Positions 6,200 to 63,600 of a DNA stretch of 64,000 nt are shown one piece after another. Position 1 is the first letter of the stretch; the number at the start of each line of letters is the position of its first letter. The translations under genes and the position numbers were made by a program. This stretch comes from Yuukianura sp. NJ FZ-2021 (taxonomy: Eukaryota): the NCBI GenBank assembly GCA_046563655.1, contig CM102288.1, positions 1,922,001-1,986,000 on the forward strand, written 5' to 3'. The notes under the pieces were generated by a model. It was not told the DNA's origin, did not search any database, and worked only from the letters and a program-made list of their open reading frames with translations.

Positions 6200-7091
6200 T
6201 TTAGTTTCTGGACTTTAAAAATACTTTCCAGGCTATGAGCCAATGACGGTAACAACGTTAGCGAAAATGGAAACGAAAATTTCCAAAGAAATTCGCAATT
6301 CTGTATCCAACAGGGGGTGACTTGAAGTGCCTGATGAAAATTCCTTGAGATCTTGCTCTATGCAGTCCAGTAATCGGGAACAAAAAAAAAACGGAGAATT
6401 TGCACGTAGGCAAGGAAAAAGTCTCGAATGTCTCTTATTGCGTAGTCGATCTCTTGAAGTGTTGTGTAAAATTTACAATCTGTGCCAAATGTTAGGATTG
6501 GCTAACGGCATGCTCCGAGCAAATTCTTTTTCATGTGACCTTCCAGTTGTCCAGCGTACTGACCTTCCTGGTACCGACAATGACGACAATATTTCCTGGA
6601 TATGTTGCACTAACTTTGTTTTAGTTAATTCCTAGGCCGTATTTGAAGGTTGAGTAGATTAGACAACGGTCCGTTAGAATAGAACCCAAGAATGTTAATG
6701 TTGGAAAGTTTACACGTTCACCGTGAACGGTTTACGTCGTATCCACGTTGGTAAATAATATTGCAAATTTACGCGAGTGCTAATTTGGGAGCAAAGTCCA
6801 CAAATTTCGTTCACGTTTCGCGAAGGTGATTGACGGCTGGTGTATTTTTAATTGTTGTGCACTTCGGCTACTTACGTAAATTGTTAATTTAATGGTAATG
6901 TAATCCAGTCTGTGAGTGTGAATACTACAAGGAGTTGGTCACAAAAATAAGCCTAAGCATTTAGTTTCTGTTATTGAAGTCGGTTGGCCATGGGCTAGGT
7001 AATGTAAGCTCCGGTTTCTCTACACAATTATCTTAATCTTGGTATTGAAGTTAAGTGGAGAAGATGTAAATAAGCAATTAACTTAACATTC

Positions 7092-7473
7092 TGTAACGCC
7101 CTCCGACGCTAGAACAACTGAAAACAATCCTCACCAGACTCTCTCCGAGCCCACAGGCTCCCAGACCCAAATAACCTCCAGAAATCACCACTGCAAAACC
7201 ATCGACGAATAATAAATATAGGTATATATTTATTGAGTCGATGAATAATATACACTGAAACAACTGCTAAATACTGATCATAACTACTGATCGCTCCAAC
7301 TCACTCAATAGCCAATCCAAGACTAAACTCTATCTACACAAATCTCCTCTCTCTCCTCAACCACACCGCCTCTCAAATCTCCCGCAACTCATCTCTGCTA
7401 AATCTCAATAGCAAAATAATATATACAATAACCTAAACAATAACTGAATAACCTAATGCGCAGACGCCCAACA
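7092..7473 (-). repeat. 3' LTR (382 bp)
   Basis: Minus strand reads TGTTGGGCGTCTG...GGGCGTTACA. No differences from 13014-13395 seen by eye. Confidence 0.95.
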
Positions 7474-7484
7474 CATTCCCCTCC
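7474..7484 (-). promoter_or_regulatory. Polypurine tract (PPT)
   Basis: GGAGGGGAA followed by TG, immediately 5' of the 3' LTR on the minus strand. Confidence 0.85.
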
Positions 7485-7525
7485 AGATGGTGGGTGTCGA
7501 GCCTGACGACCCTGGCCGACATCCA

Positions 7526-9400
7526 TCAGCGACGAACTCGGAAGGCGGCTGCAGCATCCGCACCTCTCTGCTCCCTGCGCTCACGGCGACGAACTTGACG
7601 CTCATCATAGTCTCCACGACGAGCGATGTTGATCCTTGCATTGTCTTTCTTCCTCCTCCACTGGTACCTGGCGATGGCCTCAGCACGAGTATATCCATGA
7701 CGACGATACCAACACTGAACCCACGAATGACGAGACGAACCGCAATGTCCACAACGGTCTGGATTTGGTACATGTCTGGGCTGTGGAATGTCAACTTCAA
7801 CGACTACCCTCCCAGGCACTGCTACAACTTCCGGTACTTCCTCCAACTGGTCCAAATCCTCCTGTGGTACGGAAACCTCGAGCACGTCATCCTCAGTATC
7901 TTCATCGTCAGTCTCTTCTACTATGTCACACTCCACATCCGTCATGTCACTATCTGCCTCTGCATCATCCACTGGTTTGTCCTCTTCCATGGGCTCATCG
8001 GAGACGTCTGACAAAATCGAAGTATCCGAAATGACGGATAACTTATCGTCTTCCTCCACTGGCACACTTTCACTAATATTTACACTGGAACTTGCAGTAG
8101 GCACAACGGTATTTTGAACCTGGCTCTGCACTGTAGGGACAATCATAGGGACATCCCAATCATCGTAGTCCACTGGCACTAAAGTAGCACTTGAACTGAC
8201 GGAAGCCGATGAATCGACTCCCATTTGACCCACATTTACAGTCTGACTTTCAGCTGTAATTTTTAGTAACTTATAAAGATGATCACTGCTAAGATCCACT
8301 TTTCCAAGGATCTTAGTCAATTCTGATGAATCAACTGGTAACTTCATGGCAATATTGACACATAACTCGTCGATAATCACATCACTTGGTTGACGATCAC
8401 AAGAACGAGCTACTTGTGATCTCCACTCAAAAATCTTCAAAAGTACAGCCGAATTTACACCACCCTGAGCAAACCGCTGAACAAGTTCAAATGACGTAGG
8501 GTGTTGTTTGATTTTATACATCTTTTTACACATCACATTGCACTTGTCCACTGCACTTTTCCACTTATCACTATACTGAACGAATGGGTACTTAACTCTA
8601 AGTACTCTCCACACTCGCAAAAGTAGATGAGTATCGCTTCGAGCGTACTCTAGCATATCCGAATGCATTCTTGTAAGGGGCCGAATACGAAAATCACTCA
8701 ACTGACAATCCTTCGGAACTGACACTTCCGAACCAAGATAAAAATGCACTAATTTGTCGAATCCAATTGGTTGACCACCACAAAACTCTTGATGTACCAC
8801 TTGAACGTCAATCATTCCAACCATGAAAACTTGAAATTGAATCTGTAGAGCAAGTAGATCATTGTCACTTCCATGAAAAACTTTCAGATACTCACTGTCA
8901 TGGAAAAACTCTTTGAGTTGATCACACTGATGCACCAACTCGAAAGTATCGATGAGATAATCACCTCCACAAACTGATATTTGTAAAAGTGAGATATATC
9001 GGTCGATATATCCCTTATCAAAACTCATCTCGATATCCACCGCCATCACATCACATTCACGAAGATGCTTCAGCATTCGTCTAAATCCACGTTCACTGTC
9101 CACTATAACAAAGCCAATGTCCTTACGACGATCCTCGTACCACTTTCCCTTAGCTTCAGTATGTTTAGTCTTCATAAACTCATCTAACTTCCAGGAATCA
9201 ACATCTTCCACAAATGGATGAACACTATGAGGAAACACTGGCACCGAATTACGAAGCCTAGCATGACGAAGATAAACTGGGTCAGATTCCTGTGGTCGCT
9301 CTTTAGCTTGCCCATACTTACGCAGACACAAATTTCTTTTCTGTAGGAAGCTTAGGACCCTCTCCTTAGCACTACTCACTTCAAGAATCGATCCAGGCAT
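7526..9400 (-). CDS. Element ORF in the env position: RRP6/EXOSC10-like DEDDy 3'-5' exonuclease, HRDC, acidic linker, CCHC zinc knuckle and Arg-rich tail (624 aa from the first ATG)
   Basis: ExoI AVDIE, LLQIS...DYLIDT, ExoII KVFHGSDND, QLSDFRIRPL and ExoIII MLEYARSDTHLLL parallel RRP6 (AVDLE, LMQIS, KVFHGADSD, QLADWRIRPL, YARDDTHYLL). HRDC-like IFEWRSQVARSCD...IAMKLP. CGHCGSSRHSWVQC at 7712-7753. No introns. Confidence 0.9.
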   Translation of the reverse strand: MPGSILEVSSAKERVLSFLQKRNLCLRKYGQAKERPQESDPVYLRHARLRNSVPVFPHSVHPFVEDVDSWKLDEFMKTKHTEAKGKWYEDRRKDIGFVIVDSERGFRRMLKHLRECDVMAVDIEMSFDKGYIDRYISLLQISVCGGDYLIDTFELVHQCDQLKEFFHDSEYLKVFHGSDNDLLALQIQFQVFMVGMIDVQVVHQEFCGGQPIGFDKLVHFYLGSEVSVPKDCQLSDFRIRPLTRMHSDMLEYARSDTHLLLRVWRVLRVKYPFVQYSDKWKSAVDKCNVMCKKMYKIKQHPTSFELVQRFAQGGVNSAVLLKIFEWRSQVARSCDRQPSDVIIDELCVNIAMKLPVDSSELTKILGKVDLSSDHLYKLLKITAESQTVNVGQMGVDSSASVSSSATLVPVDYDDWDVPMIVPTVQSQVQNTVVPTASSSVNISESVPVEEDDKLSVISDTSILSDVSDEPMEEDKPVDDAEADSDMTDVECDIVEETDDEDTEDDVLEVSVPQEDLDQLEEVPEVVAVPGRVVVEVDIPQPRHVPNPDRCGHCGSSRHSWVQCWYRRHGYTRAEAIARYQWRRKKDNARINIARRGDYDERQVRRRERREQRGADAAAAFRVRR

Positions 9401-9477
9401 GTTGAGAATGACGGAAGCCAAACACTTATGACTCCCAATTGACACTTCACTAACAAGTATACACTGATGATTGAAGT

Positions 9478-10908
9478 TTAAGTAGTACTCACTTTGTTTG
9501 TTCGATAACCAGCTAAAGTCCGGTAGTTAACACGTTGTATGTTTCTTGTTGTTCGCCTCACCGGTAGAGTGTCTGGGTCTGGCGATTCCTCTGACACGAC
9601 AGACACCAACGGTACTTTGAACTGCGACTTGCGAACTGTATATGGCTTAAGCTCAGACGCGTGACGCTTACCAAAATACGTTCTTTCCGGTAACCTAACC
9701 AATTTGAATGTCACTGGTGTCAAAATTTCCCTAATTTGAAATGGACCAACGAACCGATGTGACAATTTTTGCATAATTCCTTTGGCTTTATCCGACTGAA
9801 CATGACTCTTAGCTAACACAAAATCACCAACTTGAAACGTAGGTTCAATGTGACGCTGATCATAGTACTTTTTACTTGCATCATGAGCTTTTTGGATGTT
9901 TTGACGCACAAAACTAACAATGTCACTTAACTCTTTAGGAATGCTTGCTAAATCCACTGTTTCTGAATTAATTACACTTTGATCACTTTGTAAACTCCTG
10001 TCTATGGGTAATGGTATCTCACGTCCTAAATTCAATAATGAAGGTGTCACTTTAGTTGAACTATGCACTGTAGTTCTGAGCGCTAAAGCGAACTTTTGAA
10101 GGTGTATATCCCAACTTCTATGGTTTGCACCTACATAGGCCTGTAACATTGGTTTCAAATCACGATTAACTCTTTCAACTGAGTTGGCCTGAGCATGATA
10201 TGGACTGATGCACACATGATTGATTTTCCAGTCTTTGGTCATTTTAGCCATTGTTTTAGAGATGAACTGACTTCCATTGTCTGACACTATAGTTTTCACT
10301 GTTCCATATCTGCAGAATATCTCATCCACTAGCACTTTCACTACTTTATTCGCTGTTGCTTTTCGAATTGGAAAAAGTTCTACCCACTTGGAGAGGTCAT
10401 CTTCAACGACGAACAAATATTCATTTCCATTTGAACTACGGGGTAAAGGACCTAAGAAGTCCACATAAATCTTCTCAAAAACTTGGGTAGCAGGCTTTGC
10501 TCCCTGAAGTAACCCGAATGGTTTATGATTAACACTTTTCACTACTTGACAAACTGGGCATGAACGCACATATTCACTAATGTCCTTGTTCATATTATGC
10601 CAGAAAAATCTCTTTTTAATTTTCACTTTTGTTGCTTTGATCCCTAGATGAGCCGCTTCTGGAACATCATGTAGATTTTGCAAAATTTTAGGGATTAAGA
10701 CCTTTGGAACCACTGTCACTAGTAACTCACTTTGTTGAGTTTGAGATACGCTGCGAGCTGCGCCATTTGAGGCTAGGACAACGTTCTCTAGAGAAATGTC
10801 AGAAGCTTGGGGCCCCGTTTCTGCATCTCTCTCTTCTTCGGGATATCCGCAGACTCCCACAGTGGTGCGAAAGCCAAAGTCTTTGACTCTCTTTTTGCAC
10901 CAAACCAA
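9478..10908 (-). CDS. Gypsy-type integrase ORF (no ATG before the zinc finger)
   Basis: HHCC (LHDVPEAAHLG...CPVC), DDE (YVDFLGP, VSDNGSQF, SVERVNR), GPY/F motif FVGPFQI and a basic tail. No YxDD or RNase H motifs. Confidence 0.95.
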   Translation of the reverse strand: MVWCKKRVKDFGFRTTVGVCGYPEEERDAETGPQASDISLENVVLASNGAARSVSQTQQSELLVTVVPKVLIPKILQNLHDVPEAAHLGIKATKVKIKKRFFWHNMNKDISEYVRSCPVCQVVKSVNHKPFGLLQGAKPATQVFEKIYVDFLGPLPRSSNGNEYLFVVEDDLSKWVELFPIRKATANKVVKVLVDEIFCRYGTVKTIVSDNGSQFISKTMAKMTKDWKINHVCISPYHAQANSVERVNRDLKPMLQAYVGANHRSWDIHLQKFALALRTTVHSSTKVTPSLLNLGREIPLPIDRSLQSDQSVINSETVDLASIPKELSDIVSFVRQNIQKAHDASKKYYDQRHIEPTFQVGDFVLAKSHVQSDKAKGIMQKLSHRFVGPFQIREILTPVTFKLVRLPERTYFGKRHASELKPYTVRKSQFKVPLVSVVSEESPDPDTLPVRRTTRNIQRVNYRTLAGYRTNKVSTT

Positions 10909-11297
10909 AACTGCTTTGACTTTAATCGAAGCACAATGTCGTTCTGAGCAATGTAGTCAGAACCCAAAACACACGGAACAGGAAGAGATTCTGCCACGAA
11001 GAACCTAAACCTAACTGTTCTCTCACCAATTTTTATGTACACAAATGTGAAACCACTTAAACGTAGCTCCTGATTGTTCATTGTCGTTGTAGACTTATTT
11101 TCTAATGGCACTACAACTGAATTTAATTTTTTACACAAATTTCTTTCAATTAGTGACTGTGAACATCCCGTATCAAAAATAGCCAAGAACTTTGACTGGT
11201 ACGCGGTCACACTCACAAATGGTATGGTTTCGTCCGAGATTTGAATTAATGTTGGGTGAATGATGGACGACTCGTCATTCCCCTCCTTTAGTTTAAC
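10788..11297 (-). CDS. Retropepsin aspartic protease, in the -1 frame relative to gag
   Basis: AIFDTGCSQSLI active-site motif and VLGSDYI. The frame is open from the slippery site at 11297 to TAG at 10788. Confidence 0.9.
   Translation of the reverse strand, partial: VKLKEGNDESSIIHPTLIQISDETIPFVSVTAYQSKFLAIFDTGCSQSLIERNLCKKLNSVVVPLENKSTTTMNNQELRLSGFTFVYIKIGERTVRFRFFVAESLPVPCVLGSDYIAQNDIVLRLKSKQFWFGAKRESKTLAFAPLWESADIPKKREMQKRGPKLLTFL
11228..11297 (-). promoter_or_regulatory. Probable -1 ribosomal frameshift signal (G_UUA_AAC plus a pseudoknot)
   Basis: Heptamer GTTAAAC at 11297-11291 directly before the gag TAA. After a 7-nt spacer there is a stem GGGGAATGA/TCATTCACCC, whose loop TCGTCC is complementary to the downstream GGACGA. 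Confidence 0.75.
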
Positions 11298-12808
11298 TTT
11301 TCTTTCAAATTTGTAGAAGTAGAAGGCCCTTGAGCCTGGTTCACATCTTCACTTTGAGCCACAGCTTTTTTAGCCGCCTCACTGAATGATCCTAGGGCCG
11401 CACCCATGTTCGTAGGACACTGAAACTGTCGATGACCGTAACCACTACATTTGTAGCACTGTACGTCTTCTGGATTCACTGGCTGCGAATTACCATTCCC
11501 ACGACCATTACCACGACCACTGGAACTACCACCACGATTTCCACGATAACCACCTCTACCACGCTGCACTGACTGATTTTGATTTTGAACAGAACTGTCT
11601 GAAACAGAAGGTCTCTGATTTTGACCTTGACTTTGACCTTGATTCTGAACATCACCATGATTTGGGGGGAAGCCAGTGAACTGACTCCCATTAGTTGTCT
11701 GAACCGAGCTTTGCTCCTGGTTTTGATTATGGTAGCCACCTCTGCCACGATAATTTGAGCCACGGTAACCACCACTGTAATTTCCTCTTCCTCTGTAGTA
11801 ATTTCCATTATTTCCGTTATTTTTGTGGTTAGCACTAGAACTAGCACCATCACTTCCACTTTTTTCATTTTCTGAATTTTTAGATTCAACTTTCACAATT
11901 GGTGGCAACTTTGGGTATTTTTCACGATTAATTCGATCTTCGGCACTTAAATTAGCGTGAGCAACACGACACGCTTCAAACAATGACTCAACTGTAGGAA
12001 AACTGCCAGTACCTAGAGCTGTACGAAGTCTTGGGTATAGGGCCAGTTTTGCCCTCATAACAGCCTCAGCTGTTGTTTCATGTGGGTACACTAATTTAGC
12101 ACTGCGCACCATATCGTAGATGAAATGTTCAGTTGGTTCATGTAACTGTTGCCTTCGGGTGTGCAAGAGTCTAGTCCGCTCTGCCACATCCATCCAATTG
12201 TCGTACCGATCAATAAATGCATCTTTAAACTCATCCCACGTTGTCACTGTATTTAGAATATGCTCAAACCATGGCTGAGACTCACTTGGCAACACTGTTT
12301 TAACTAAGTACAAAAATTGCTGCTCTGAATGTCCTTGTGCTGTGTAGTACCTTTCTACATCAGCAAGGTATCCTGCCGCTGACATCTTCCTGGTGTCGAA
12401 TTTTGGAACTGGTAATTTTGATGACAACGAGGTAAACTTCACGTTCTTTAAGGCAGCAATCAGCGCCTCTGTCTGACTTTCACTTTCACTCACAGTGGAG
12501 GCCGCAGTAGCGACTCCCGTGGACACTCTGGACACTATTTTGTCTTCCACGCCTTTCATGGCTTTTGCTACCGCAGCAGCAACTATCTTGTCCACGTCAT
12601 CTTTACTGTATGTTGCCATTGTCGATGCACCCGCAGGAACTGACACTATAGCACTAGATGTAGGAGTTGGAGATACACTCGGAGAAGTTTTGCTTCTCAA
12701 GAACGGTCCTTCCGCGTCAGGAGATAGTCCCTCTACTTCCACGCCGAATGCGACTGATTTGTCGATTTTTAACTTGGAAAGTTCACTAGGAACTTTCTTT
12801 TCACTCAT
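11288..12808 (-). CDS. Gag (506 aa from ATG 12808)
   Basis: Retrotransposon capsid-like region (WFEH...TWDEFKDAFIDRY...RRQQLHEP), RG/N/Q-rich region and zinc knuckle CYKCSGYGHRQFQC at 11417-11458. Confidence 0.9.
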   Translation of the reverse strand: MSEKKVPSELSKLKIDKSVAFGVEVEGLSPDAEGPFLRSKTSPSVSPTPTSSAIVSVPAGASTMATYSKDDVDKIVAAAVAKAMKGVEDKIVSRVSTGVATAASTVSESESQTEALIAALKNVKFTSLSSKLPVPKFDTRKMSAAGYLADVERYYTAQGHSEQQFLYLVKTVLPSESQPWFEHILNTVTTWDEFKDAFIDRYDNWMDVAERTRLLHTRRQQLHEPTEHFIYDMVRSAKLVYPHETTAEAVMRAKLALYPRLRTALGTGSFPTVESLFEACRVAHANLSAEDRINREKYPKLPPIVKVESKNSENEKSGSDGASSSANHKNNGNNGNYYRGRGNYSGGYRGSNYRGRGGYHNQNQEQSSVQTTNGSQFTGFPPNHGDVQNQGQSQGQNQRPSVSDSSVQNQNQSVQRGRGGYRGNRGGSSSGRGNGRGNGNSQPVNPEDVQCYKCSGYGHRQFQCPTNMGAALGSFSEAAKKAVAQSEDVNQAQGPSTSTNLKEKLN

Positions 12809-13001
12809 GAATGAACTTTGACACAACGGAGGCCACTGTTAGTGACTCCCAGAATGAATAAATTGGCGAAAGCCGCTGTTAGCGACTCTCTTAGGTGATT
12901 TTTTAGTATACACACTTTTTTAGGCACAATTTTACACAATTTTTCTTACTTTTATCTTGTTTGACCTCTGGTGACCTCCAGGTCACTGGATCTGGACACA
13001 A

Positions 13002-13011
13002 ACGGTCGCCA
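13002..13011 (-). promoter_or_regulatory. Primer binding site, tRNA-Arg type
   Basis: TGGCGACCGT starts 2 nt after the 5' LTR end. It resembles the tRNA-Arg PBS of insect 412/mdg1-type elements (recalled, not aligned to this species' tRNAs). Confidence 0.75.
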
Positions 13012-13013
13012 TG

Positions 13014-13395
13014 TGTAACGCCCTCCGACGCTAGAACAACTGAAAACAATCCTCACCAGACTCTCTCCGAGCCCACAGGCTCCCAGACCCAAATAACCTC
13101 CAGAAATCACCACTGCAAAACCATCGACGAATAATAAATATAGGTATATATTTATTGAGTCGATGAATAATATACACTGAAACAACTGCTAAATACTGAT
13201 CATAACTACTGATCGCTCCAACTCACTCAATAGCCAATCCAAGACTAAACTCTATCTACACAAATCTCCTCTCTCTCCTCAACCACACCGCCTCTCAAAT
13301 CTCCCGCAACTCATCTCTGCTAAATCTCAATAGCAAAATAATATATACAATAACCTAAACAATAACTGAATAACCTAATGCGCAGACGCCCAACA
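13014..13395 (-). repeat. 5' LTR (382 bp)
   Basis: Direct repeat of 7092-7473, followed on the minus strand by the PBS. Confidence 0.95.
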
Positions 13396-15360
13396 ATTCA
13401 AGACATGAATGAGAACGAAGACCGACAAACCACTCGAACTTTAGAAGTAAACTGAACTCGCCTTGCCAATGTACTCGTATTGTCGTATTGTAACACACGG
13501 CACAGCATAGCATACCGAGGACTACTAGGCACTCCACCCGGCATAGGTTTTTGCTGCAGTGAGAAAGATAGCACGCTAATTTTCAATACTGTTTAGCAAC
13601 TAAGTTATCTACATAAAACTTATTTACTTATTTAATTTGCCTGGATGATTATTTGCACTCAAGAAATTATTATTAGTTTTTTTTTCATAATGTAGATTAT
13701 TTTCATAATGTAGTTTATTTTTTTCAACGTGCAGTTGTTGATTTTATTTTTGTCGCGTCACCTATGTTAGGTTGAAGTGAATCAAACGCAGACATAAATT
13801 AAATTGCACTTATTTTTGTGGTTGTAATACACACAAAAATTTCACCTCAATATTATGCGTCATGAAAGTTGGAATTTTGCATGTGTTTTGCATCAAAAGT
13901 CAAAACTTCAAACTTTTCTAGCGTTTTGAAGTTTGGAATTGAAATTGACTCTGCTAACTTCACATGACAAACTCCGATTGCCTGATGGAGTACACTACCC
14001 AGGGGGAGTATGGTAAATACCACCCACCAATTCTCGACAACAACAAAAACAACGCAATTTTGTCCAATCCTTTTAGCTTTGGTTTAAGCATTGGATTCAG
14101 AGGTGTCCCGTTATAGCATATGAAACTGTGTATCCTTGGGGAGACTTGCATACTTTCCATGTTTTCACTTTTCAATCACTGGGAACTGGGACACAAGACG
14201 ACGATAGCAACGCGTAAGAAAACTGAATGCTCTTCTGCCTGAAGGACTTTGTAATATAAATTGGTAAACCGCAAATGCTAATAATAGGTGTTAATCAACT
14301 GCGGTTGAGCTGGAGTACGGCAGACGGCAGAGTTGCTGGCCAACGGTAGGGTCCCATTGCCGTTATCGGTTTTGTTAAAAACGTTTGGCTGACTTGACAG
14401 ACTGCATCAACAGATCTCAGGTAGTTTATACCTTATGCGATATGTTTATGTACACATAACCTCGCCTGGTTTTTGCATGTTTACATTCCATCTGATTCTA
14501 ACAAGCTATTATCAGTGCTATGGTTGTACCCGAACGCTTTTACCTCTTGCGCGATCTCTGCCTCCACACTGAAATTCTATGCTAATGGTAGCACCAAAAT
14601 AATATATTCCTCTGAATTGCGTAACACAAGGCGTTATTTTATTTTTTGGCAGGACATTCAGTTGCTGTTTCTGGGTGAAGGAGAATCTGGTTCGAGAAGG
14701 AAGAATTTCTAAAGAAGTGGGTTCCCTGGCTGGCAGAAAGCTTCTGTCATTCGTCTCTAATACCGTCGACACGACTATCTTCTGGTCCAGTGTACACAAG
14801 GCGGAAGGCAGATATTGTTTTGCGAGCGAGGAGAGGAGAACTGAAAGTCGTGTGGATTTGCGAAATGTTGGGTGGGACTCGACCCACTTCAACTTCAGGT
14901 TCAACGATCAAAGGCAACCAGGACGGATCTGTGCCAAGGAAAAGGGAGCCCTTCGGAGGTTTCAGTTTCGAGTCTGAATCTCTACCAGATTTCAGTGAAT
15001 TTGAAGAGAACAGCTCTGAATCAGCCAAGGGTGGAGCAGAAAAAGCGTAAACTTGTGTGCACAAACATTTTCCGTGTTGATTGTGTTACTAACTAAGCTA
15101 ATTGGAACTTGTTTTTGTTTTTGCTGCCTTAACACTACTTTCTGTAGTTGGAACCTAACGTCGACGGGCAGCTAAACGTCAACGCAGTGTGCAGCTAAAT
15201 AGTTTTATAACGAAAGTATATTGTCGAAGTTCTTAAGTTGTTTTGCCAAATTACACATTCGCTATTTGATTTCGTGTGGAACTACTAACAAGAAACCAAA
15301 AGAGTGAACCAAGTGCCAAAAATTGGAGATTCAATTACTAAACAAAAGTCTGAATTTGAA

Positions 15361-16888
15361 ATGTCCAGAAGGCCTGCAGATGGGAGAATGGCTCCTCAAA
15401 CAGTTATAGAAACAGTGACCATCTCCAGGCCTATAAAAGTAAGTCAAAACTTTCTATTCAGCATCCATTCATTCTGCGTTTCCGCAATTTTTTTTTGTCT
15501 GTGTTCTTCTTACAGCGCGAATCGAAGTCTCTTCCACGAATATCGATTTCTGATTTGCAAAGATTTCCTATCCGTTTATGATTTATGATGACCTGAGACC
15601 TCATTTGAAATCCAATGGATCCAGAAACTTCCGTACTCCTTGTGTTCCATTTTCTGAGATCATTTCCTTGTCTTTCATTTCTCACAAGTAGTATTTCAAT
15701 TCAAAATGGGATTCAATTGTGGGTCAAAGGTTAACTGTAACAATAATTAGCAGAAAAAAAATGCAATTCCTAGGCTAATCTTATTTAACAAATTTATTAA
15801 TTTTGATTTTCAGGTGATTGCCTTCCTGTGCGGCCTATTCGCGTGTTTTCTACTTGTAATGGCCCTAGCATCTTCGGAGTGGGTCATATCCGACAACTAT
15901 AAACAAGGTAAATTAAAAAAAAAAGAAACTAACCAAACAGTTTACGTCTTGTGTCCACTAAAGTTTATGTAATTGGTGACTTAATTCGTTTGTTTTTGAA
16001 GGACTCTTCATGTATTGTGTAACGAATAATACGAACGTGAACGACACACAACCCGTCCCGTTTGTGGCAATTGAGGACACTAAAGGTGCTGAGCCGGGGT
16101 GTCGTGGGATTGACCTTGCACAACAAGGTTACTGGAAATTGACAGCGAACAATTGCTAAGTTGTGTATGTATGTATGGAAATCGCTAATATAATAAATAT
16201 TTTTTTCAGCTTACACCCTGATCTGCGGTGGGTTCTGTGTGTCAGCCCTGTTGATCAGCATATTTGCAACACTTCTTACGGTTCTAGGCCTGCGATGTCG
16301 AGATGCTAATAAAAAGTACCAGTACTACCGTATAGGAACCATAGTTATGACGGTTGCATGTAAGTTGCCAATTACTTGACTATGATTAATTAACAATTGC
16401 TTTTCAAAAATTAAGTTTTGTGTATTAATGTTTCAGTGGTTGGTGCTTTGGTGGGTCTTGTAGTGTATCCAATCTGTTTTACCTCAGTTGTTTCGAGTAG
16501 TAAGTCAATTGCAATTCTAATTTTTCGGTTTCCTGAATTGAAATTTTGTCTTTTCTGGCCAATTTTCAGCTTTGCGCCGAGAGTATGAATTTGGATGGGC
16601 AATGGGGGTTGGATGGGGAGGTAATTGAATTAGTAGTGCAAACATTCTTGAATCATCACTTTTAGTTGAAAAGCTACCTAAGTTTTTTCGTTTAATAGCT
16701 GCCATTTTCCTGTTTGGTGGAATCATTCTTCTGCTCTGTGATAGAGAAACTGAAGAGATCTACTACAAGGTGAATAGTTTTTGAAAAAAGCATTCTGTGC
16801 AATTTTATGAACAGCATCCGAATTAAAAATTTTACTTTTCCAGGAACGCACAATCGTCCAGTATGCTGATGCAGATGATAAAAATTGA
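15361..16888 (+). CDS. TMEM47: TMEM47-like tetraspan protein (PMP22/claudin superfamily), multi-exon
   Basis: Spliced product MAPQTVIETVTISRPIK/VIAFLCGLFACFLLVMALASSEWV...QGLFMYC...YEFGWAMGVGWG...LLLCDRETEEIYYKE. The start may be 15361 or 15388. Confidence 0.75.
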
Positions 16889-22984: not shown

Positions 22985-26236
<3,252 letters not shown>

Positions 26237-29200
26237 CTTCAGGAACTCTACCAAAATTCTCAAAAGATCACTTGACCTTTGACCTCAAATCACTTTCACC
26301 TCACTTCAACTTTACTTAATTGTATCAAAAATTTAAAAACTTCCAAAATTTTGAAGTTGTTGGCCGCTCTGAGTCGATTGTTGGTGTGAATTGAAATTGA
26401 TACTTCCCAGGCGTCAAGCCGTCTCTCTATTTCAAGTTCCCCGCGAGATGGGTGCCTCCAGGGAGGTCCAACCAAGGTACACACTTAGCACCTAACATTC
26501 AAACTTACATAGGTTAACTTGTGTGATACTTGCAGCATCCGTGTAACTTACTTCACAGATTCACACATTTACATGAGAGTCACCCAAGGGAGGATTTCAC
26601 CCCAAGCTCCGCCCCTTTTCAAAAGTTTACATAGGCCAAGGGCGGGTTTCTCCCTCCAAATTAGCCCGCCCTTCACTCTTTCTCCCTAATTCAAGCGGGT
26701 GAAAGTTAGTTTCAGCTTAATTTTTCATGTTAGGTTATGTTAGGCTATGGCTAAGCGTGAGAGCTCTGCCTTGTCATGTGTCCACTCACTTTGGCTTGTC
26801 CAACACCCAGCGAAAGACCAAATAAGGAGCCGACAGACAGAGATTTATGGGCCCATAGGCAGAGACACATAGAGCTTCGAATCTTCCTTGCTCATTAACA
26901 CCTTGAAACTTCTCAGAAGATGAAATCCCTTTAAGAGTAGAGGAGTTTTGAATCTGAGGTTAACTTTTTAAAGATCTCAGAGATTCAGAATGAATCAGAG
27001 AGGAAGTGTTGTGGTGGACGGGTGGGGTCCCTGTGGTGACCGACCGAACAAATTCCGAACCCACCGCAGCGGCACGCACTCCTGGTCGCTGCAGTTCCTG
27101 CTCAAGTCAAAGAATTTCATGTTGAAAACAATAGACTTTCAAAGAAACTGAGGAATTTGAAAAAATTAGACAATGGGTGAAGCTAAAACGCTTGACTTTA
27201 ACAATGAAATTTTGAGAGAAGCGGATATGAGCGAAACGCATGCGCGTGAGAAAGTCCCGAAAGCTGGAATTCCTGGAAGGGCTCCAGAGGTCAGAATTCC
27301 AGCTGGAGAAGATGTCCAGGGGTCATTGTGACCTCAAACGTTTAGGTTTGTCTATTGTTAGGTGTTGTAAGGGAGATTTGTTAGTTTGATTGTTGTGGAG
27401 GGAAGATGAAAGACGGCGGTCGGTGTGGTCCCTTTGGTTGTGTTATGTCCATTGAGGAATGGAAATGAAGGGAACAAAGACAGAATCTCCATAGAGGCTC
27501 GATTATTATTGAAGGGCCCCCCTTTTGACTCTTGCCGACTGTTGACACTTGGCTCAGCCCCCCTTCCAGGCCTTAGGTTGGGCCCTTAAGGTCCACGAGA
27601 CTGACTTTTAGTCCGGTAGGTCCATTGATACTTTCAGGCTTTCAGGGAACGCTTAACAACAATCAACGCCTAATTACTGTACATATCAAATTTTAACAAA
27701 AACCCAAAAAGTACTACAAAAGGTAACGAAAAACACAAAATAGTGCCAAAAAATCAAAATTTGAACAGTTTCGTTTTCCTTTTCATTTTTATTATAAAAA
27801 TTTCTTCAATTTTGAAAAAAAAATTAAAACCTGAGAAGAACCTAACCTAACCTGACAAGAATCTAATGAAACTTTGATATATTTTTTAAACACAAAAAAA
27901 ATAAGCCAGTGGATGAATCCGAAATTTTTGAAAAACCAGAAACTATTTAGCACAAATTTTTTGTCAGTTTCATTTTTTGTGCTAAGTTGCGTACCAAAAA
28001 GTCCGTGTAGAGCGTTAAGGTATTAAGTTTTTAATTGATCCTGAAACCGTGAGTTTTGTTAAGTGCCAAGGAGTGCGGAGAGTGTTGATTGGATTAGTTG
28101 CGTCCAATTTGTAGAGTGATGGACTTGATATTCGTGCCCTTCAAGGGTCCTAGTCGTCTAAGGAGCCGTGACTTTATGCATTTTGGACCACAAAAATTCA
28201 ATCTACACGCAAAATTATCCACGCACAAAACTCAAAAACATAAATTTTGTGTATCATCTTCCATTTCTTTTTTAAATTCCTCACATTGGGCTTCTTTTAC
28301 TTCAAATCCACTCGAAATTAATCGTTCCAATTTCTTTGTAAAATTGAGCAAATTTGATAGTTACTCATCTTCTATAGTTCACTGCGGCATAAAATTTCTA
28401 CGTCGTAAATTTTAAGTTTTAGCGGGTGTACGACGACGGACCATTTAGCAGCAGTTTCTGACTCGTTTTTGGCATATGATGTGTCAAAGGCTTTTAAGTT
28501 TTTTGTTAGTAGCGGGAGAATTGAATTTATCATGTCGTGAATTCGTAGGAAAAAGACAAGATTTGTTCCGGATTAAGAAAGGGAAGTTTCTTCCCTGATT
28601 TATGCCTCCTTCCAACAATCACTCCAACAAACAACAAGAAATTCTAACGTCAATCCCAAACCATTGTGTAAGCAGAAAAAAATTTAGTAGGGTTACCGAA
28701 TAAGTCACTTTTTCAACTTTACCCCCCACCCCCACTTTTTTACAAACCAAAAGTCATCTACACCTTTAAAAGTATACAAAGTTTGGCAAAAACTTCAAAA
28801 CGGGAGAAAATATTTGTACTTATTCCATCATACACGCCGGTAAAAAAAAACAAATTTTTGGTATTAAATAAATCCAGCGAATTGTAAAGTTACACGCTTT
28901 CTTCACCGACTTCCTAACATTCTTGTTTCAATTTTGTTCTGTTTTTTTTTTTTTGTTGTTTTTTTTTTTGGAATTTCAAATTTTGAATTTGCTTTATTTT
29001 CAAGTTGAAATAATGAAAGAAAATTCAAAAGTTGAAAATTTCAACTCTTCGGAGACTTCTGACTCGAAAACATTTCAATATTTTTTAACAACACGATTTT
29101 TCAGTTGAAAATAAGAAAAGTTGTGTTTTAGAAAGTTTGCGTTAGGTTTATTAATTTTCGTTCTTTAGTGTTTCTGAATCTAAAAAAATTTCGTAACGAT

Positions 29201-60463: not shown

Positions 60464-60647
60464 TTCCGATCAGGATCAGCTCCGATCAAATTCTGATCAG
60501 TTCCGATCAACTTCTGATCAGTTCCGATCAAGTTCTGATTCTCTACGATCGTATTCTGATCGGATCCGCTCAAGTTCTGATCAATGAAGATTAAGCTATG
60601 TTCTTATTAAGTTCTGATCCCTTCCGATCAGTGATCAGTTCCGATCA
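60464..60647. repeat. Degenerate 10-11-bp GATCA-containing repeat array just 3' of the LRR gene
   Basis: Repeated TTC(C/T)GATCA(G/A) units. Confidence 0.75.
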
Positions 60648-63600
60648 TCGTCTCATAGGAGTCTCGTCGTACTGAACAAAGTATGGAAGGGAAGCGTAAA
60701 GTTGTTGTTGTTGAGCGAGATGCAGGGCTTGCATGTTGATCGGTTGCAGAGAGGCCATGTTTCCTTGTGGTTGATGGTAAAGCGAATGATGTGAGCGTAC
60801 TGTCGCGGCAGCTCCAGTATGCGGATACGGTGATTTGCAAGTACATTTCCCCTGGGGGTGATGATGATGCTGATGATGCGGCATTTGCTTGTGACCTTGA
60901 CCTGCCATGACATGCATACTTTCTGGACCTCCCGACCCTCTGCGCAGACAACACACCAGCGTTAATACGAAAATCACGAGAAGGCTAACCACTCCTCCGA
61001 CGATTCCTAGGATTAGGTTGTCCATTGCATTGGTGTCCATCGACGACGAAATTTTTGGCGTCGTCGACGGCGGTTGTTTCTGTTGCGTCGTTGAGGCAGT
61101 TGGAGTTGTCTGTGGCAGTGACCAAATTATGTCATCAGTTGTTGTTGGTGTAGTTTGGGTGGGATAAGTTATATAAGTCTCAGTAGTTTTCGATCGCTGC
61201 GCAGGCGTCGTTGAACTGACGCTGGAAGTCGATGAACAAAGTAATAAGTGTGGCTGGATTTGGCTTATAGGCGTTCCTTGTAGCGCTGGAGGAGAAGCAC
61301 ATGTCGCTGAAGAGTCAATTCCTTGGAGGTATTTAATTAAATGGATTGCATTGCAGTCACAGTGTGGATTGATTCCCAGAATTCTTATATTTTGGCTCAG
61401 AATTGGTGGTGATATGGTCAGAATCTGTGAATCTGAGATGTCAATCAGCACATTAGAAGACGCCGGAACTGGAACAAGTATCGGTGGCAGTGCTGTTAAA
61501 GAAGTGTTTGTCATCAATATTTGCACATTTGGAGAACTCAGTCCCGCCAGCGCTCCAGTCGAAACGCTGCGAATCGCTTTTCCCCTAAGGGCAATGAATC
61601 CCAGCCTTGGAGACAATGCTGGATGAATTTGATCCAAAATCTGATGATCTTTCACTTCAAAATCAATTTTTTCCAAAAAGTGCAAATTTGCTAAGATTCC
61701 CTTAATGTCAATGTATCCCAGTTTAGGCGTGTCCCGGATTTGAAGTTCCGTTAACAACGGTAAGTTGAGTGCTCCTTTTTCTAGTCTCGTCAACTCCCGA
61801 ACGCTGTTTAGTATTAAGCGATTCAGCGACGCTGGAAACGGTGTTCCCCGAAGCGATTCCAGTCTACTTCCGGATAAATCCAGCGAAGTTAGAGTTAGAG
61901 GCAGATCTTGCGGTGGATTTTTTAGTGGATTTCCAGCCAAATTCAGCAAATTCAGCAGCGTTGTCCGCTTGAAAGCTGTTTTCGGTACTTCCGAGACAAA
62001 ATTTCCTTGTAAATCCAGTTTTCTCAAAAACGGAATTTCAATTGTCGGTAAATTAGATACATTCGTGTAGGCCATATTCAAAGTCCGAGTTGTTTTGGGT
62101 TCATTGAGCAGCGTCATTTGGGCTGCAGGAGACAACGGATTGTAAGAAATGTCGAGATGCTTGACATTTACCAGCACATTTGAATTTGGCGGAACAGTTG
62201 AAATGGAATTATTGGCTAAAGACAGTTTTTCTAAAAAGAAAATTTGTGGTTGAAGTGCAACTGTTGGAAATTCATGCAAAACGTTATTGCTCAAGTCAAT
62301 TTCAATCAATCGCAGTACAGTTGTGCGTGCAAAAAGTTGCGGCGGAAGAGATGACAAGTAGTTACTGGCCAACTTGAGCTCAAGTCGAAACAACCCGCGA
62401 AATAAATTTTCATCCAGTTCTTCTATCTTGTTTTCCGATAAATCCAGGATTTGCAGTTGAGATGAATTTGAAAACGGTTCGATCGGAAGAGTTTCAATTG
62501 CATTAGAATTTAGTTTGAGAGAGCGCAGACGCGGGAAATTTGAAAACGAAACTTCATGAATATGGCGTAACATGTTACGTGCAAGTGAAAGTGAAGTTAG
62601 GGTATCCGGTGGAAGTGACTCCATAGGGAAGAAGGTTAACTGATTTCCAGAAATGTCCAGTGAAGATACTGCGGAGATATTTCCAAATGCTTGTGGGAAT
62701 ACATACGTTATTTTGTTATTTGCGAGTGACAGGAATTTCAGGGCCGGAAAAGATCCCAAAAGGCCGCGGAACGAACTGAGTCCGTTTCCCGCCAGCATCA
62801 GCGATTTCAAATTTTCAGCGTTTTGTAAAAACAGCGATTCTTGGAGATTGGTCAATTGGTTTTTGCTTAAATCCAGCATGCGCAGTGATGGAAGTCCACT
62901 TAAAGGCTGAATTGCGCCGATTTCGTTTGAAGACAGATTCAACCATGTCAGAGCTTCCAAATCTTGGATTTGGCTGAAATCTGAAATTTTGTTGCCAGAG
63001 AGGTCAAGGTGGGTCAAATGCTTGAGTTGCTGAAAAGCATTGAGTTCTAACTTTGATACTTCGTTGTTCTGGATATGAAGACGAGTCAGTTGCGGTAAAA
63101 GTAGAAAATTATGGGACAAGATACTGCCAATATGATTGTGTGATACATCCAGAGTATGCAAAAGTGGAAGATGTAGACGCGGAATGGACGTGAGATTGTT
63201 TCGACTTGTGTTGAGGTCAAGCAGTGACCCTGGCCAGTGCAGTTCTTCGAGCGACTCAAGTTGATTTCCATGCAAATTCAGATTTTGTAGTTGCACTAAA
63301 TGTTTAAGCGATTCTGGAGGAATGTGTCGAATGAGGTTATTGGCTATGCTGAGTCCAGTTAGATTTGTAGTAGGAATTCCTTGAATTGCTGTGATTCGGT
63401 TGAAATCAAGATGGAGTCGCTTGAGGCCTAAAATAGAATGGAGTGAGTCCATTGGAAACAGAAGGAGGTTGGTATCGGACAAATCCAACGTTCGGAGATT
63501 CACGAGTCCATGAAACAATTTTTTCGGTATCTGAAAGTACAAAACGAACAACAATTTTAGTTGAAAAATTAGTTGAAAAGGGTTTTAGCAAAATTTCAAA

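Follow-up and report, generated by a model that had tools for sequence, protein, structure and literature searches.

A young LTR retrotransposon of Yuukianura sp. without reverse transcriptase and RNase H, probably an internal-deletion derivative of an exonuclease-bearing Ty3/gypsy element

The 64,000-nucleotide stretch of DNA analysed here, from Yuukianura sp. NJ FZ-2021 (assembly GCA_046563655.1, contig CM102288.1, positions 1,922,001 to 1,986,000, hereafter the window), contains a long terminal repeat (LTR) retrotransposon of 6304 bp, located on the minus strand at 7092-13395. It has open frames for Gag, protease (PR) and integrase (IN), followed by a third open reading frame (ORF3) for an Rrp6-like exonuclease, and it is devoid of reverse transcriptase (RT) and RNase H (RH). 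We consider it likely that this copy is a young internal-deletion derivative of a Ty3/gypsy element, and that it belongs to a small, recently active lineage whose copying depends on helper elements, rather than being a one-off defective product.

The loss of RT and RNase H was apparent from two analyses. Neither an RVT nor an RNase H domain was found by Pfam in the four long open frames of the element. The pols of six relatives, five of which contain a protease while the sixth (P0024) does not, were also aligned to the element by tblastn. The five protease-containing pols matched only a PR part (in frame +2) and an IN part (in frame +1), and 578-684 residues of their RT-RH region had no counterpart in the element. 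P0024 matched in the integrase and in a short piece of the exonuclease. Integrase identity between these complete pols and the element was 50-54%. PR homology ended at 10884-10899 and firm IN homology began at ~10719, and the unmatched DNA between the two parts amounted to ~40-160 nt; therefore, there is no room for RT. A sequence-only reading of this DNA, made before our analysis, had already announced the absence of both domains, and it is borne out by the Pfam and tblastn results. The order PR-RT-RH-IN, typical of Ty3/gypsy pols, is thus not seen in this copy, as RT and RH are absent from it. PR and IN, which share a single frame in the relatives, occupy separate frames in the element. The protease frame runs on for 96 nt beyond the end of PR homology and stops at 10788; this stop, together with the frame change, means that the integrase is disconnected from the protease. 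A Copia-like or Gmr1-like order (PR-IN-RT) was considered and rejected, as the closest relatives are organised PR-RT-RH-IN, with an ORF3 that occupies the post-IN position there too.

Complete relatives were found both among proteins and among metagenome contigs. When longer proteins were searched with the integrase frame, 248 of them matched. The nine best (P0015-P0023, 48-54% identical) all had RVT_1, RNase H and IN, and in the four that were scanned (P0015, P0016, P0020 and P0022) the order PR-RT-RH-IN was present in one protein. In the springtail protein P0024, RNase H, integrase and an exonuclease piece are fused. A scan of metagenome contigs, using a 5-row alignment, yielded 215 relatives from 450 candidates, and the eight closest were annotated. 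Three of them (L002, L005 and L007) had gag, then a full pol of ~1200 residues (PR-RT-RH-IN) at -1, then the exonuclease ORF. L001 begins within pol and has RH-IN followed by the exonuclease ORF, while L006 and L016 were too short for their gene order to be read. The distance from LTR to LTR is 5922 nt in the element and 7995 nt in L002, that is, 2073 nt longer, in keeping with the loss of RT-RH from the element. Based on the fact that complete relatives hold every function in one element, the window copy would be a plain internal-deletion derivative, and not half of a designed pair. A bipartite division of labour had been proposed in the sequence-only reading; it is not retained, given that gag, PR-RT-RH-IN and the exonuclease are together in the complete relatives. 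Separately, a 63-nt tandem duplication (90% identity) was seen at 262-387 of L001, in the RNase H-integrase linker, which is the same poorly conserved region as that in which the deletion of the window copy ends.

The boundaries of the element are those of a Ty3/gypsy (Metaviridae) insertion (Table 1), with direct TG...CA LTRs and a short target-site duplication (TSD), a primer-binding site (PBS) by the 5′ LTR and a polypurine tract (PPT) by the 3′ LTR. The two LTRs were identical at 382 of 382 bases (100% over 382 in blastn). On these points the earlier reading proved accurate: it had reported identical LTRs, an intact TSD, PBS and PPT, and the 2-nt TG and CA spacers, which are both present between the LTRs and the PBS or PPT. 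The assignment of TGGCGACCGTTTGTGTCC as PBS follows from its position, and position likewise suggests that the purine run at 7476-7484 acts as PPT. A tRNA scan of the window for a primer partner detected 0 tRNA genes. TGGCGACC may resemble tRNA-Arg-primed insect elements.

Table 1. Features of the element and of the intron that holds it (window coordinates)
Feature	Position	Strand	Remarks
Host GT-AG intron holding the whole element	6876..14116	+	GT at 6876, AG at 14115-14116; element antisense
TSD ATTC, left	7088..7091	.	equal to the 4 bases beyond the other LTR
3′ LTR (element orientation)	7092..7473	-	382 bp, TG...CA
Putative PPT GGAGGGGAA	7476..7484	-	2 nt (TG in element orientation, CA on +) from 3′ LTR
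ORF3	9400-7526	-	624 aa, own ATG, ~75 nt past the stop codon of the IN frame
Integrase frame	10956-9478	-	492 codons without stop; -1 to protease frame
Interval with deletion junction	10730..10884	-	likeliest point near 10860-10870
Protease frame	11348-10788	-	DTG active site; gag-asp_proteas 28.9 bits; -1 to gag
Slippery heptamer A AAT TTG	11306..11312	-	gag frame, within gag/PR overlap
gag	12808-11288	-	506 aa from first Met; CCHC knuckle
Putative PBS TGGCGACCGTTTGTGTCC (TGG...)	12994..13011	-	2 nt (CA in element orientation, TG on +) from 5′ LTR
5′ LTR (element orientation)	13014..13395	-	382 bp, TG...CA
TSD ATTC, right	13396..13399	.	read from sequence

Between the LTRs, four long open frames follow each other head to tail on the minus strand, each at -1 relative to the preceding one. 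Elements of LARD or TRIM type have no coding capacity between their LTRs, and the four frames set this copy apart from them. The genes are those of a Ty3/gypsy element, namely an H2C2 finger (Integrase_H2C2, 73.2 bits), an rve core (56.4 bits) and a Tf2-type SH3 domain (SH3_Tf2-1, 29.0 bits for a cut-off of 30) in the integrase frame, a CCHC knuckle in gag (zf-CCHC, 18.7, just under the cut-off of 20.8) and an aspartic protease; apart from SH3_Tf2-1 and zf-CCHC, these domains exceed their Pfam cut-offs. Identity between the gag product and those of L002, L005 and L007 is 29-36%, and in these three relatives pol is also at -1 to gag. The heptamer A AAT TTG, of canonical slippery form, may be viewed as a candidate -1 frameshift site leading from gag to PR; the fold 3′ of it was not unusual compared to shuffled sequences (z 0.22). 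A second heptamer, G GGC CCC, is present at 10815 in the PR/IN overlap and is formally slippery. For the 90 nt 3′ of it, a z of -2.0 was obtained (4 of 200 shuffles folded equally well), with a hairpin that begins ~20 nt off. Two points of the sequence-only reading have to be corrected here. It had the copy supply integrase, but IN does not share a frame with PR: it is at -1 relative to PR, and this frame change severs it from PR. The 'nuclease', for its part, is encoded apart, by a third ORF that starts at an ATG of its own.

ORF3 is organised as an Rrp6-like DEDDy 3′-5′ exonuclease, an HRDC domain, an acidic linker, a CCHC knuckle (residue 550) and a basic tail. The exonuclease domain was recognised as DNA_pol_A_exo1 (PF01612) with 87.7 bits (1e-24, cut-off 23.6), whereas HRDC was borderline (22.7 bits for a cut-off of 23.8). 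The ORF3 motifs DIE, NDL and YARSD are found where EXOSC10 has its catalytic motifs (DxE, D and YxxxD). In a 12-row alignment, D122, D181, Y252 and D256 do not vary, and at least 90% of the rows have E124, which places ORF3 among the DEDDy exonucleases. Its best matches among solved proteins were EXOSC10 and Rrp6 (5e-21), over the exonuclease and HRDC parts. Orthologues of Rrp6/EXOSC10 combine HRDC with PMC2NT (PF08066), and the latter was not found in ORF3 by Pfam. Identity to cellular Rrp6 was 25-31%. Judged from its domains, ORF3 is not an Rrp6/EXOSC10 orthologue.

A HMMER search with ORF3 returned 3193 proteins at E <= 1e-3, 12 of them at E <= 1e-30. The top matches are stand-alone proteins of ~530-620 aa whose first Met aligns with the MPGSIL of ORF3, and the start Met of ORF3 was aligned with that of 11 relatives. 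Among 166 matches, a C-terminal CCHC knuckle was present in 15 of the 73 short-N proteins versus 1 of the 93 long-N proteins, and this sole exception, P0143, is a springtail gene model joining integrase and exonuclease. A maximum-likelihood tree was built on 80 rows, comprising the window, the 75 best matches with at least 230 matched residues (shorter ones were omitted) and 4 named cellular proteins. In this tree, which is unrooted and comes from a quick search, 36 rows (the window and the short-N type) are split from 44 rows of cellular Rrp6 type, with a Shimodaira-Hasegawa-like approximate likelihood ratio test (SH-aLRT) support of 100. In the 30 clusters that were examined, organism names were available for short-N members from six clusters, five from Orchesella dallaii and one from Allacma fusca, all springtail; one other organism-named member, a nematode EXOSC10 homologue, sits in the cellular group. 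To judge by these nearest named proteins, a springtail host is probable. A recent capture of a host Rrp6 gene was discarded, given the 25-31% identity to cellular Rrp6 and the position of ORF3 in a separate group of the tree. As far as these comparisons go, the nuclease is an old, ancestral accessory gene of the element lineage. In the sequence-only reading, it was among the functions that this copy supplies; a gain or special retention by this copy is not supported, the gene being inherited within the lineage and found in complete relatives as well.

At two other annotated metagenome loci (L003:9519-10637 and L004:6059-7192), the exonuclease ORF has relatives of only 373-378 aa, without knuckle and with no pol directly upstream. 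In both, an ORF of 376-377 aa without Pfam match follows ~1 kb downstream. These loci may represent another type of element, or a domesticated gene.

We then asked what public sequencing runs contain at the junction. Five runs cover the stretch, and contigs of X1, X2 and X3 (one sample) and of X5 (another organism, from another study) were compared over 7474-16500. The junction is bridged by an X2 contig of 828 nt (10143-10970) with 0 differences, and by an X1 contig of 428 nt (10499-10926) with 2 differences, at 10703 and 10768, and 0 gaps. The depth of the X1 contig was 66, versus ~40 in the flank, and the frame break is common to both variants. An assembly collapse had been put forward in the sequence-only reading as a condition to check; with independently built contigs of two runs across the junction, it is very unlikely. 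The two differences of X1 are shared by X5, where a contig of 1133 nt runs collinear with the window over 9759-10891, with 28 differences in all. The junction is thus very probably also present in a second organism, at ~2.5% divergence. X5 contains the flank as well, ~1-4% different. Since the LTRs of the window copy are identical, a copy that is ~2.5% different cannot be the same insertion, which means that the deleted form was most likely inserted more than once. Finally, in an X2 contig position 7087 is joined directly to 13396 with a single ATTC. This empty site indicates that the insertion is polymorphic or heterozygous in that sample, and that it is recent. The repeated junction variants make it probable that RT was provided in trans and that copying was helper-dependent, as had been suggested from the sequence.

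The same contigs give a view of the family. A candidate complete relative is an X5 contig of 827 nt, which, small indels apart, tracks the window between 11130 and 10867, departs from it at 10867 and continues with 560 nt unlike the window. These indels are also those of an X3 contig whose depth is 438, versus ~200 in the flank. Overall, 193 X1 and 427 X3 contigs matched, in every identity class to below 90%, as would be expected of a family of low copy number whose members have diverged. Among the best-supported 40 of 860 differences, 31 fall within ORFs, and synonymous changes accounted for 10 of 12 in the integrase, 5 of 8 in ORF3 and 6 of 11 in gag, which shows that the proteins of the family evolved under constraint. 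This synonymous bias is no evidence that an RT-less lineage needs its own integrase, since nothing links the variant contigs to the junction. At window 12848-12953, X1 and X5 contigs skip 104 nt of the 5′ leader, between PBS and gag, a length variant among family copies. A low depth of X3 at 10484-10784 (36.8) was also noticed; it comes from incomplete cover by contigs and carries no information.

These observations can be assembled into the following scheme. The ancestor would be a Ty3/gypsy-type element of ~8 kb which, like the complete members of the lineage, has gag, a -1 frameshifted pol (PR-RT-RH-IN) and an ORF3 made of an Rrp6-like DEDDy domain, HRDC and a CCHC knuckle. RT and RNase H were lost through a deletion of ~1.8-2 kb, which fused the end of the protease out of frame to the RNase H-integrase linker. 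Since the copy retains the PBS, the PPT and the 5′ leader as well as its two LTRs, the RNA could still be packaged and reverse-transcribed by the Gag-Pol of complete relatives. The RNA of the copy itself would yield Gag, Gag-PR (via AAATTTG) and perhaps ORF3, while integrase synthesis would be unlikely. The ORF3 product would be made from a separate message or by reinitiation; most likely, it is an enzyme acting on RNA 3′ ends that the knuckle and basic tail would bring to the particle or to its RNA. The insertion is recent, and segregates with the empty allele.

The simplest competing account is that of a one-off defective copy, produced by a template switch during its own round of reverse transcription or by a deletion after insertion, the RT-less form never being recopied. 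Internal deletions are common among retroelement copies, an out-of-frame junction is the outcome expected from a random deletion, and a single insertion site was seen, with no other copy detected when the element was compared to the window by blastn. We nevertheless regard this account as unlikely, because a second junction variant (2 differences, 0 gaps) is present in the same sample at a depth above that of the flank, and because the other organism has the same two differences on a collinear contig (28 differences over 1133 nt), a copy too different to be this insertion given its identical LTRs. Several points do weigh against recopying of the deleted form. All the compared runs were used as contigs, in which depth is not copy number, and X1, X2 and X3, being from one sample, may be the source data of the window itself. 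If that sample was pooled, the X1 variant is possibly an allele of the same insertion, and we estimate that with 2 differences in 428 nt, the chance of zero differences between the LTRs is still ~0.17. The X5 contig covers the whole breakpoint interval, but it extends only 7 nt past the last certain PR residue. The breakpoint itself is not fixed, the protein alignment with the six complete pols being ambiguous from ~10790 to 10884. Copies with the same junction at different TSDs had been called for in the sequence-only reading. Among the compared contigs, one sample gave two variants of the junction and the other organism a probable third, and no second insertion site with a TSD of its own was seen. 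No RT-bearing copy with these LTRs was recognised among them either; contigs that depart from the window at 10867 are candidates. Lastly, transcription from the element's own LTR is an assumption of the scheme.

A more elaborate account supposes a cooperative two-component system, in which a selected RT-less lineage supplies Gag, PR, IN and nuclease, a partner gives RT, and IN is reached by a second -1 frameshift. The integrase frame is indeed open over 492 codons, 10 of the 12 integrase differences between family contigs and the window are synonymous, and G GGC CCC lies in the PR/IN overlap, with 90 nt downstream that fold somewhat better than shuffles. Several points speak against this account. 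An open IN frame is expected of any young copy, and the synonymous bias would equally result from divergence among autonomous copies and recombination. Such a heptamer should occur by chance in about one fifth of overlaps of that length (our estimate), C-rich slippery sites are poor shifters, and the predicted hairpin begins ~20 nt downstream. Moreover, the relatives hold all functions in one element. We therefore find the two-component system improbable. The same low probability is given to its strongest form, in which the RT-less element would be a selected second component, with an integrase expressed through the G GGC CCC shift and an Rrp6-like nuclease, spreading with its RT-bearing partner. 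If it were true, both would benefit from the action of the nuclease on RNA 3′ ends, for instance when primers or genomes are processed, or as a counter to RNA surveillance by the host. An assembly artefact, that is, a collapse or mis-join by which RT-RH was dropped from a complete element, is the least credible account, and we give it hardly any weight. Repeats collapse readily and the best-matching runs may be the data from which the window was assembled; still, independently built contigs from two runs cross the junction without gaps and with 0-2 differences, reaching 42-86 nt past the last PR residue and hundreds of nt into the IN part. We keep, as the probable explanation, a young internal-deletion derivative within a helper-dependent lineage.

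LTR elements with a nuclease have a precedent in bdelloid rotifers. Rodriguez, Kenefick and Arkhipova (2017, PMC5408684) describe ORF3 of the LTR retrotransposons Juno and Vesta as a DEDDy exonuclease; the ORF3s of these elements resemble one another more closely than they do their cellular homologues, their function is given as unknown, and some have a Cys/His zinc motif. The finding is also cited in PMC6338049. In Juno and Vesta, according to the same paper, as in the window element, the third ORF after pol is an RNase D/Rrp6-like DEDDy 3′-5′ exonuclease. For Juno and Vesta, DEED is reported (PMC5408684), while the window ORF3 has the full DEDD set, along with an HRDC-like part, a CCHC knuckle and a basic tail. 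Also unlike them, the window copy is without RT-RH, the named relatives of its ORF3 are springtail and not rotifer, and rotifer pols are only 33-36% identical to it in the integrase. Compared to Rrp6/EXOSC10, ORF3 shares the DEDDy residues and a conserved stretch ahead of the exonuclease domain, but it has neither PMC2NT nor the exosome-binding tail, and has the acidic linker, CCHC knuckle and basic tail instead.

Non-autonomous LTR elements (LARD, TRIM, BARE-2, Dasheng) and helper-dependent retroviral genomes are mobilised in trans, and can form lineages of their own. Like these, the window element has intact LTRs, PBS and PPT without an RT of its own, and its copying would need a complete relative. 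Most named non-autonomous families have lost nearly all their coding sequence or kept only gag. The window copy differs from them by its open gag, PR, IN and ORF3 frames, which is the look of a very young deletion derivative. A limited literature search turned up neither springtail LTR elements with an exonuclease ORF3 nor a direct precedent for a coding, RT-less, non-autonomous LTR lineage. Deletion derivatives mobilised in trans and nuclease-bearing LTR elements are already known, and what is added here is a very young example of the former and another group of hosts for gypsy elements that bear a nuclease. LTR retrotransposons with an exonuclease, described until now from bdelloid rotifers, are extended to a lineage in which every named member is a springtail protein, and the ORF3 architecture of this lineage is defined (Rrp6-like core, HRDC, CCHC knuckle). 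Besides, non-autonomous LTR elements are usually met long after their genes were lost; here, the first step would have been caught. A segregating copy, antisense within an intron and with probable sister copies, offers a case in which the spread of a defective element at the cost of its helper can be measured.

The host intron was delimited with X2. In a contig of this run, the exon that ends at 6875 is followed directly by the one that begins at 14117, the 30 letters of the contig ahead of 14117 being equal to window 6846-6875. Without the element, this intron would be 933 bp long. Six further GT..AG joints up to 16437 were found in X2, at a depth of ~150, and the host gene, on the plus strand, is expressed. 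X2 is labelled 'DNA?', but with spliced GT..AG joints over 14213-16437 it behaves like an RNA library. Its depth was 6.6-11.9 over the element versus 2.2-2.4 over the neighbouring intron, a signal that could come from transcription, from intron read-through or from multi-copy DNA; among the joints listed (15 of 23), no GT..AG joint was within the element. Elsewhere in the window, two features mark it as animal DNA, a paired-box (PAX) exon at 25784-26284 on the minus strand (1.5e-45), and an intron-free leucine-rich-repeat ORF of 979 aa with LRRCT, at 60645-63584 on the same strand.

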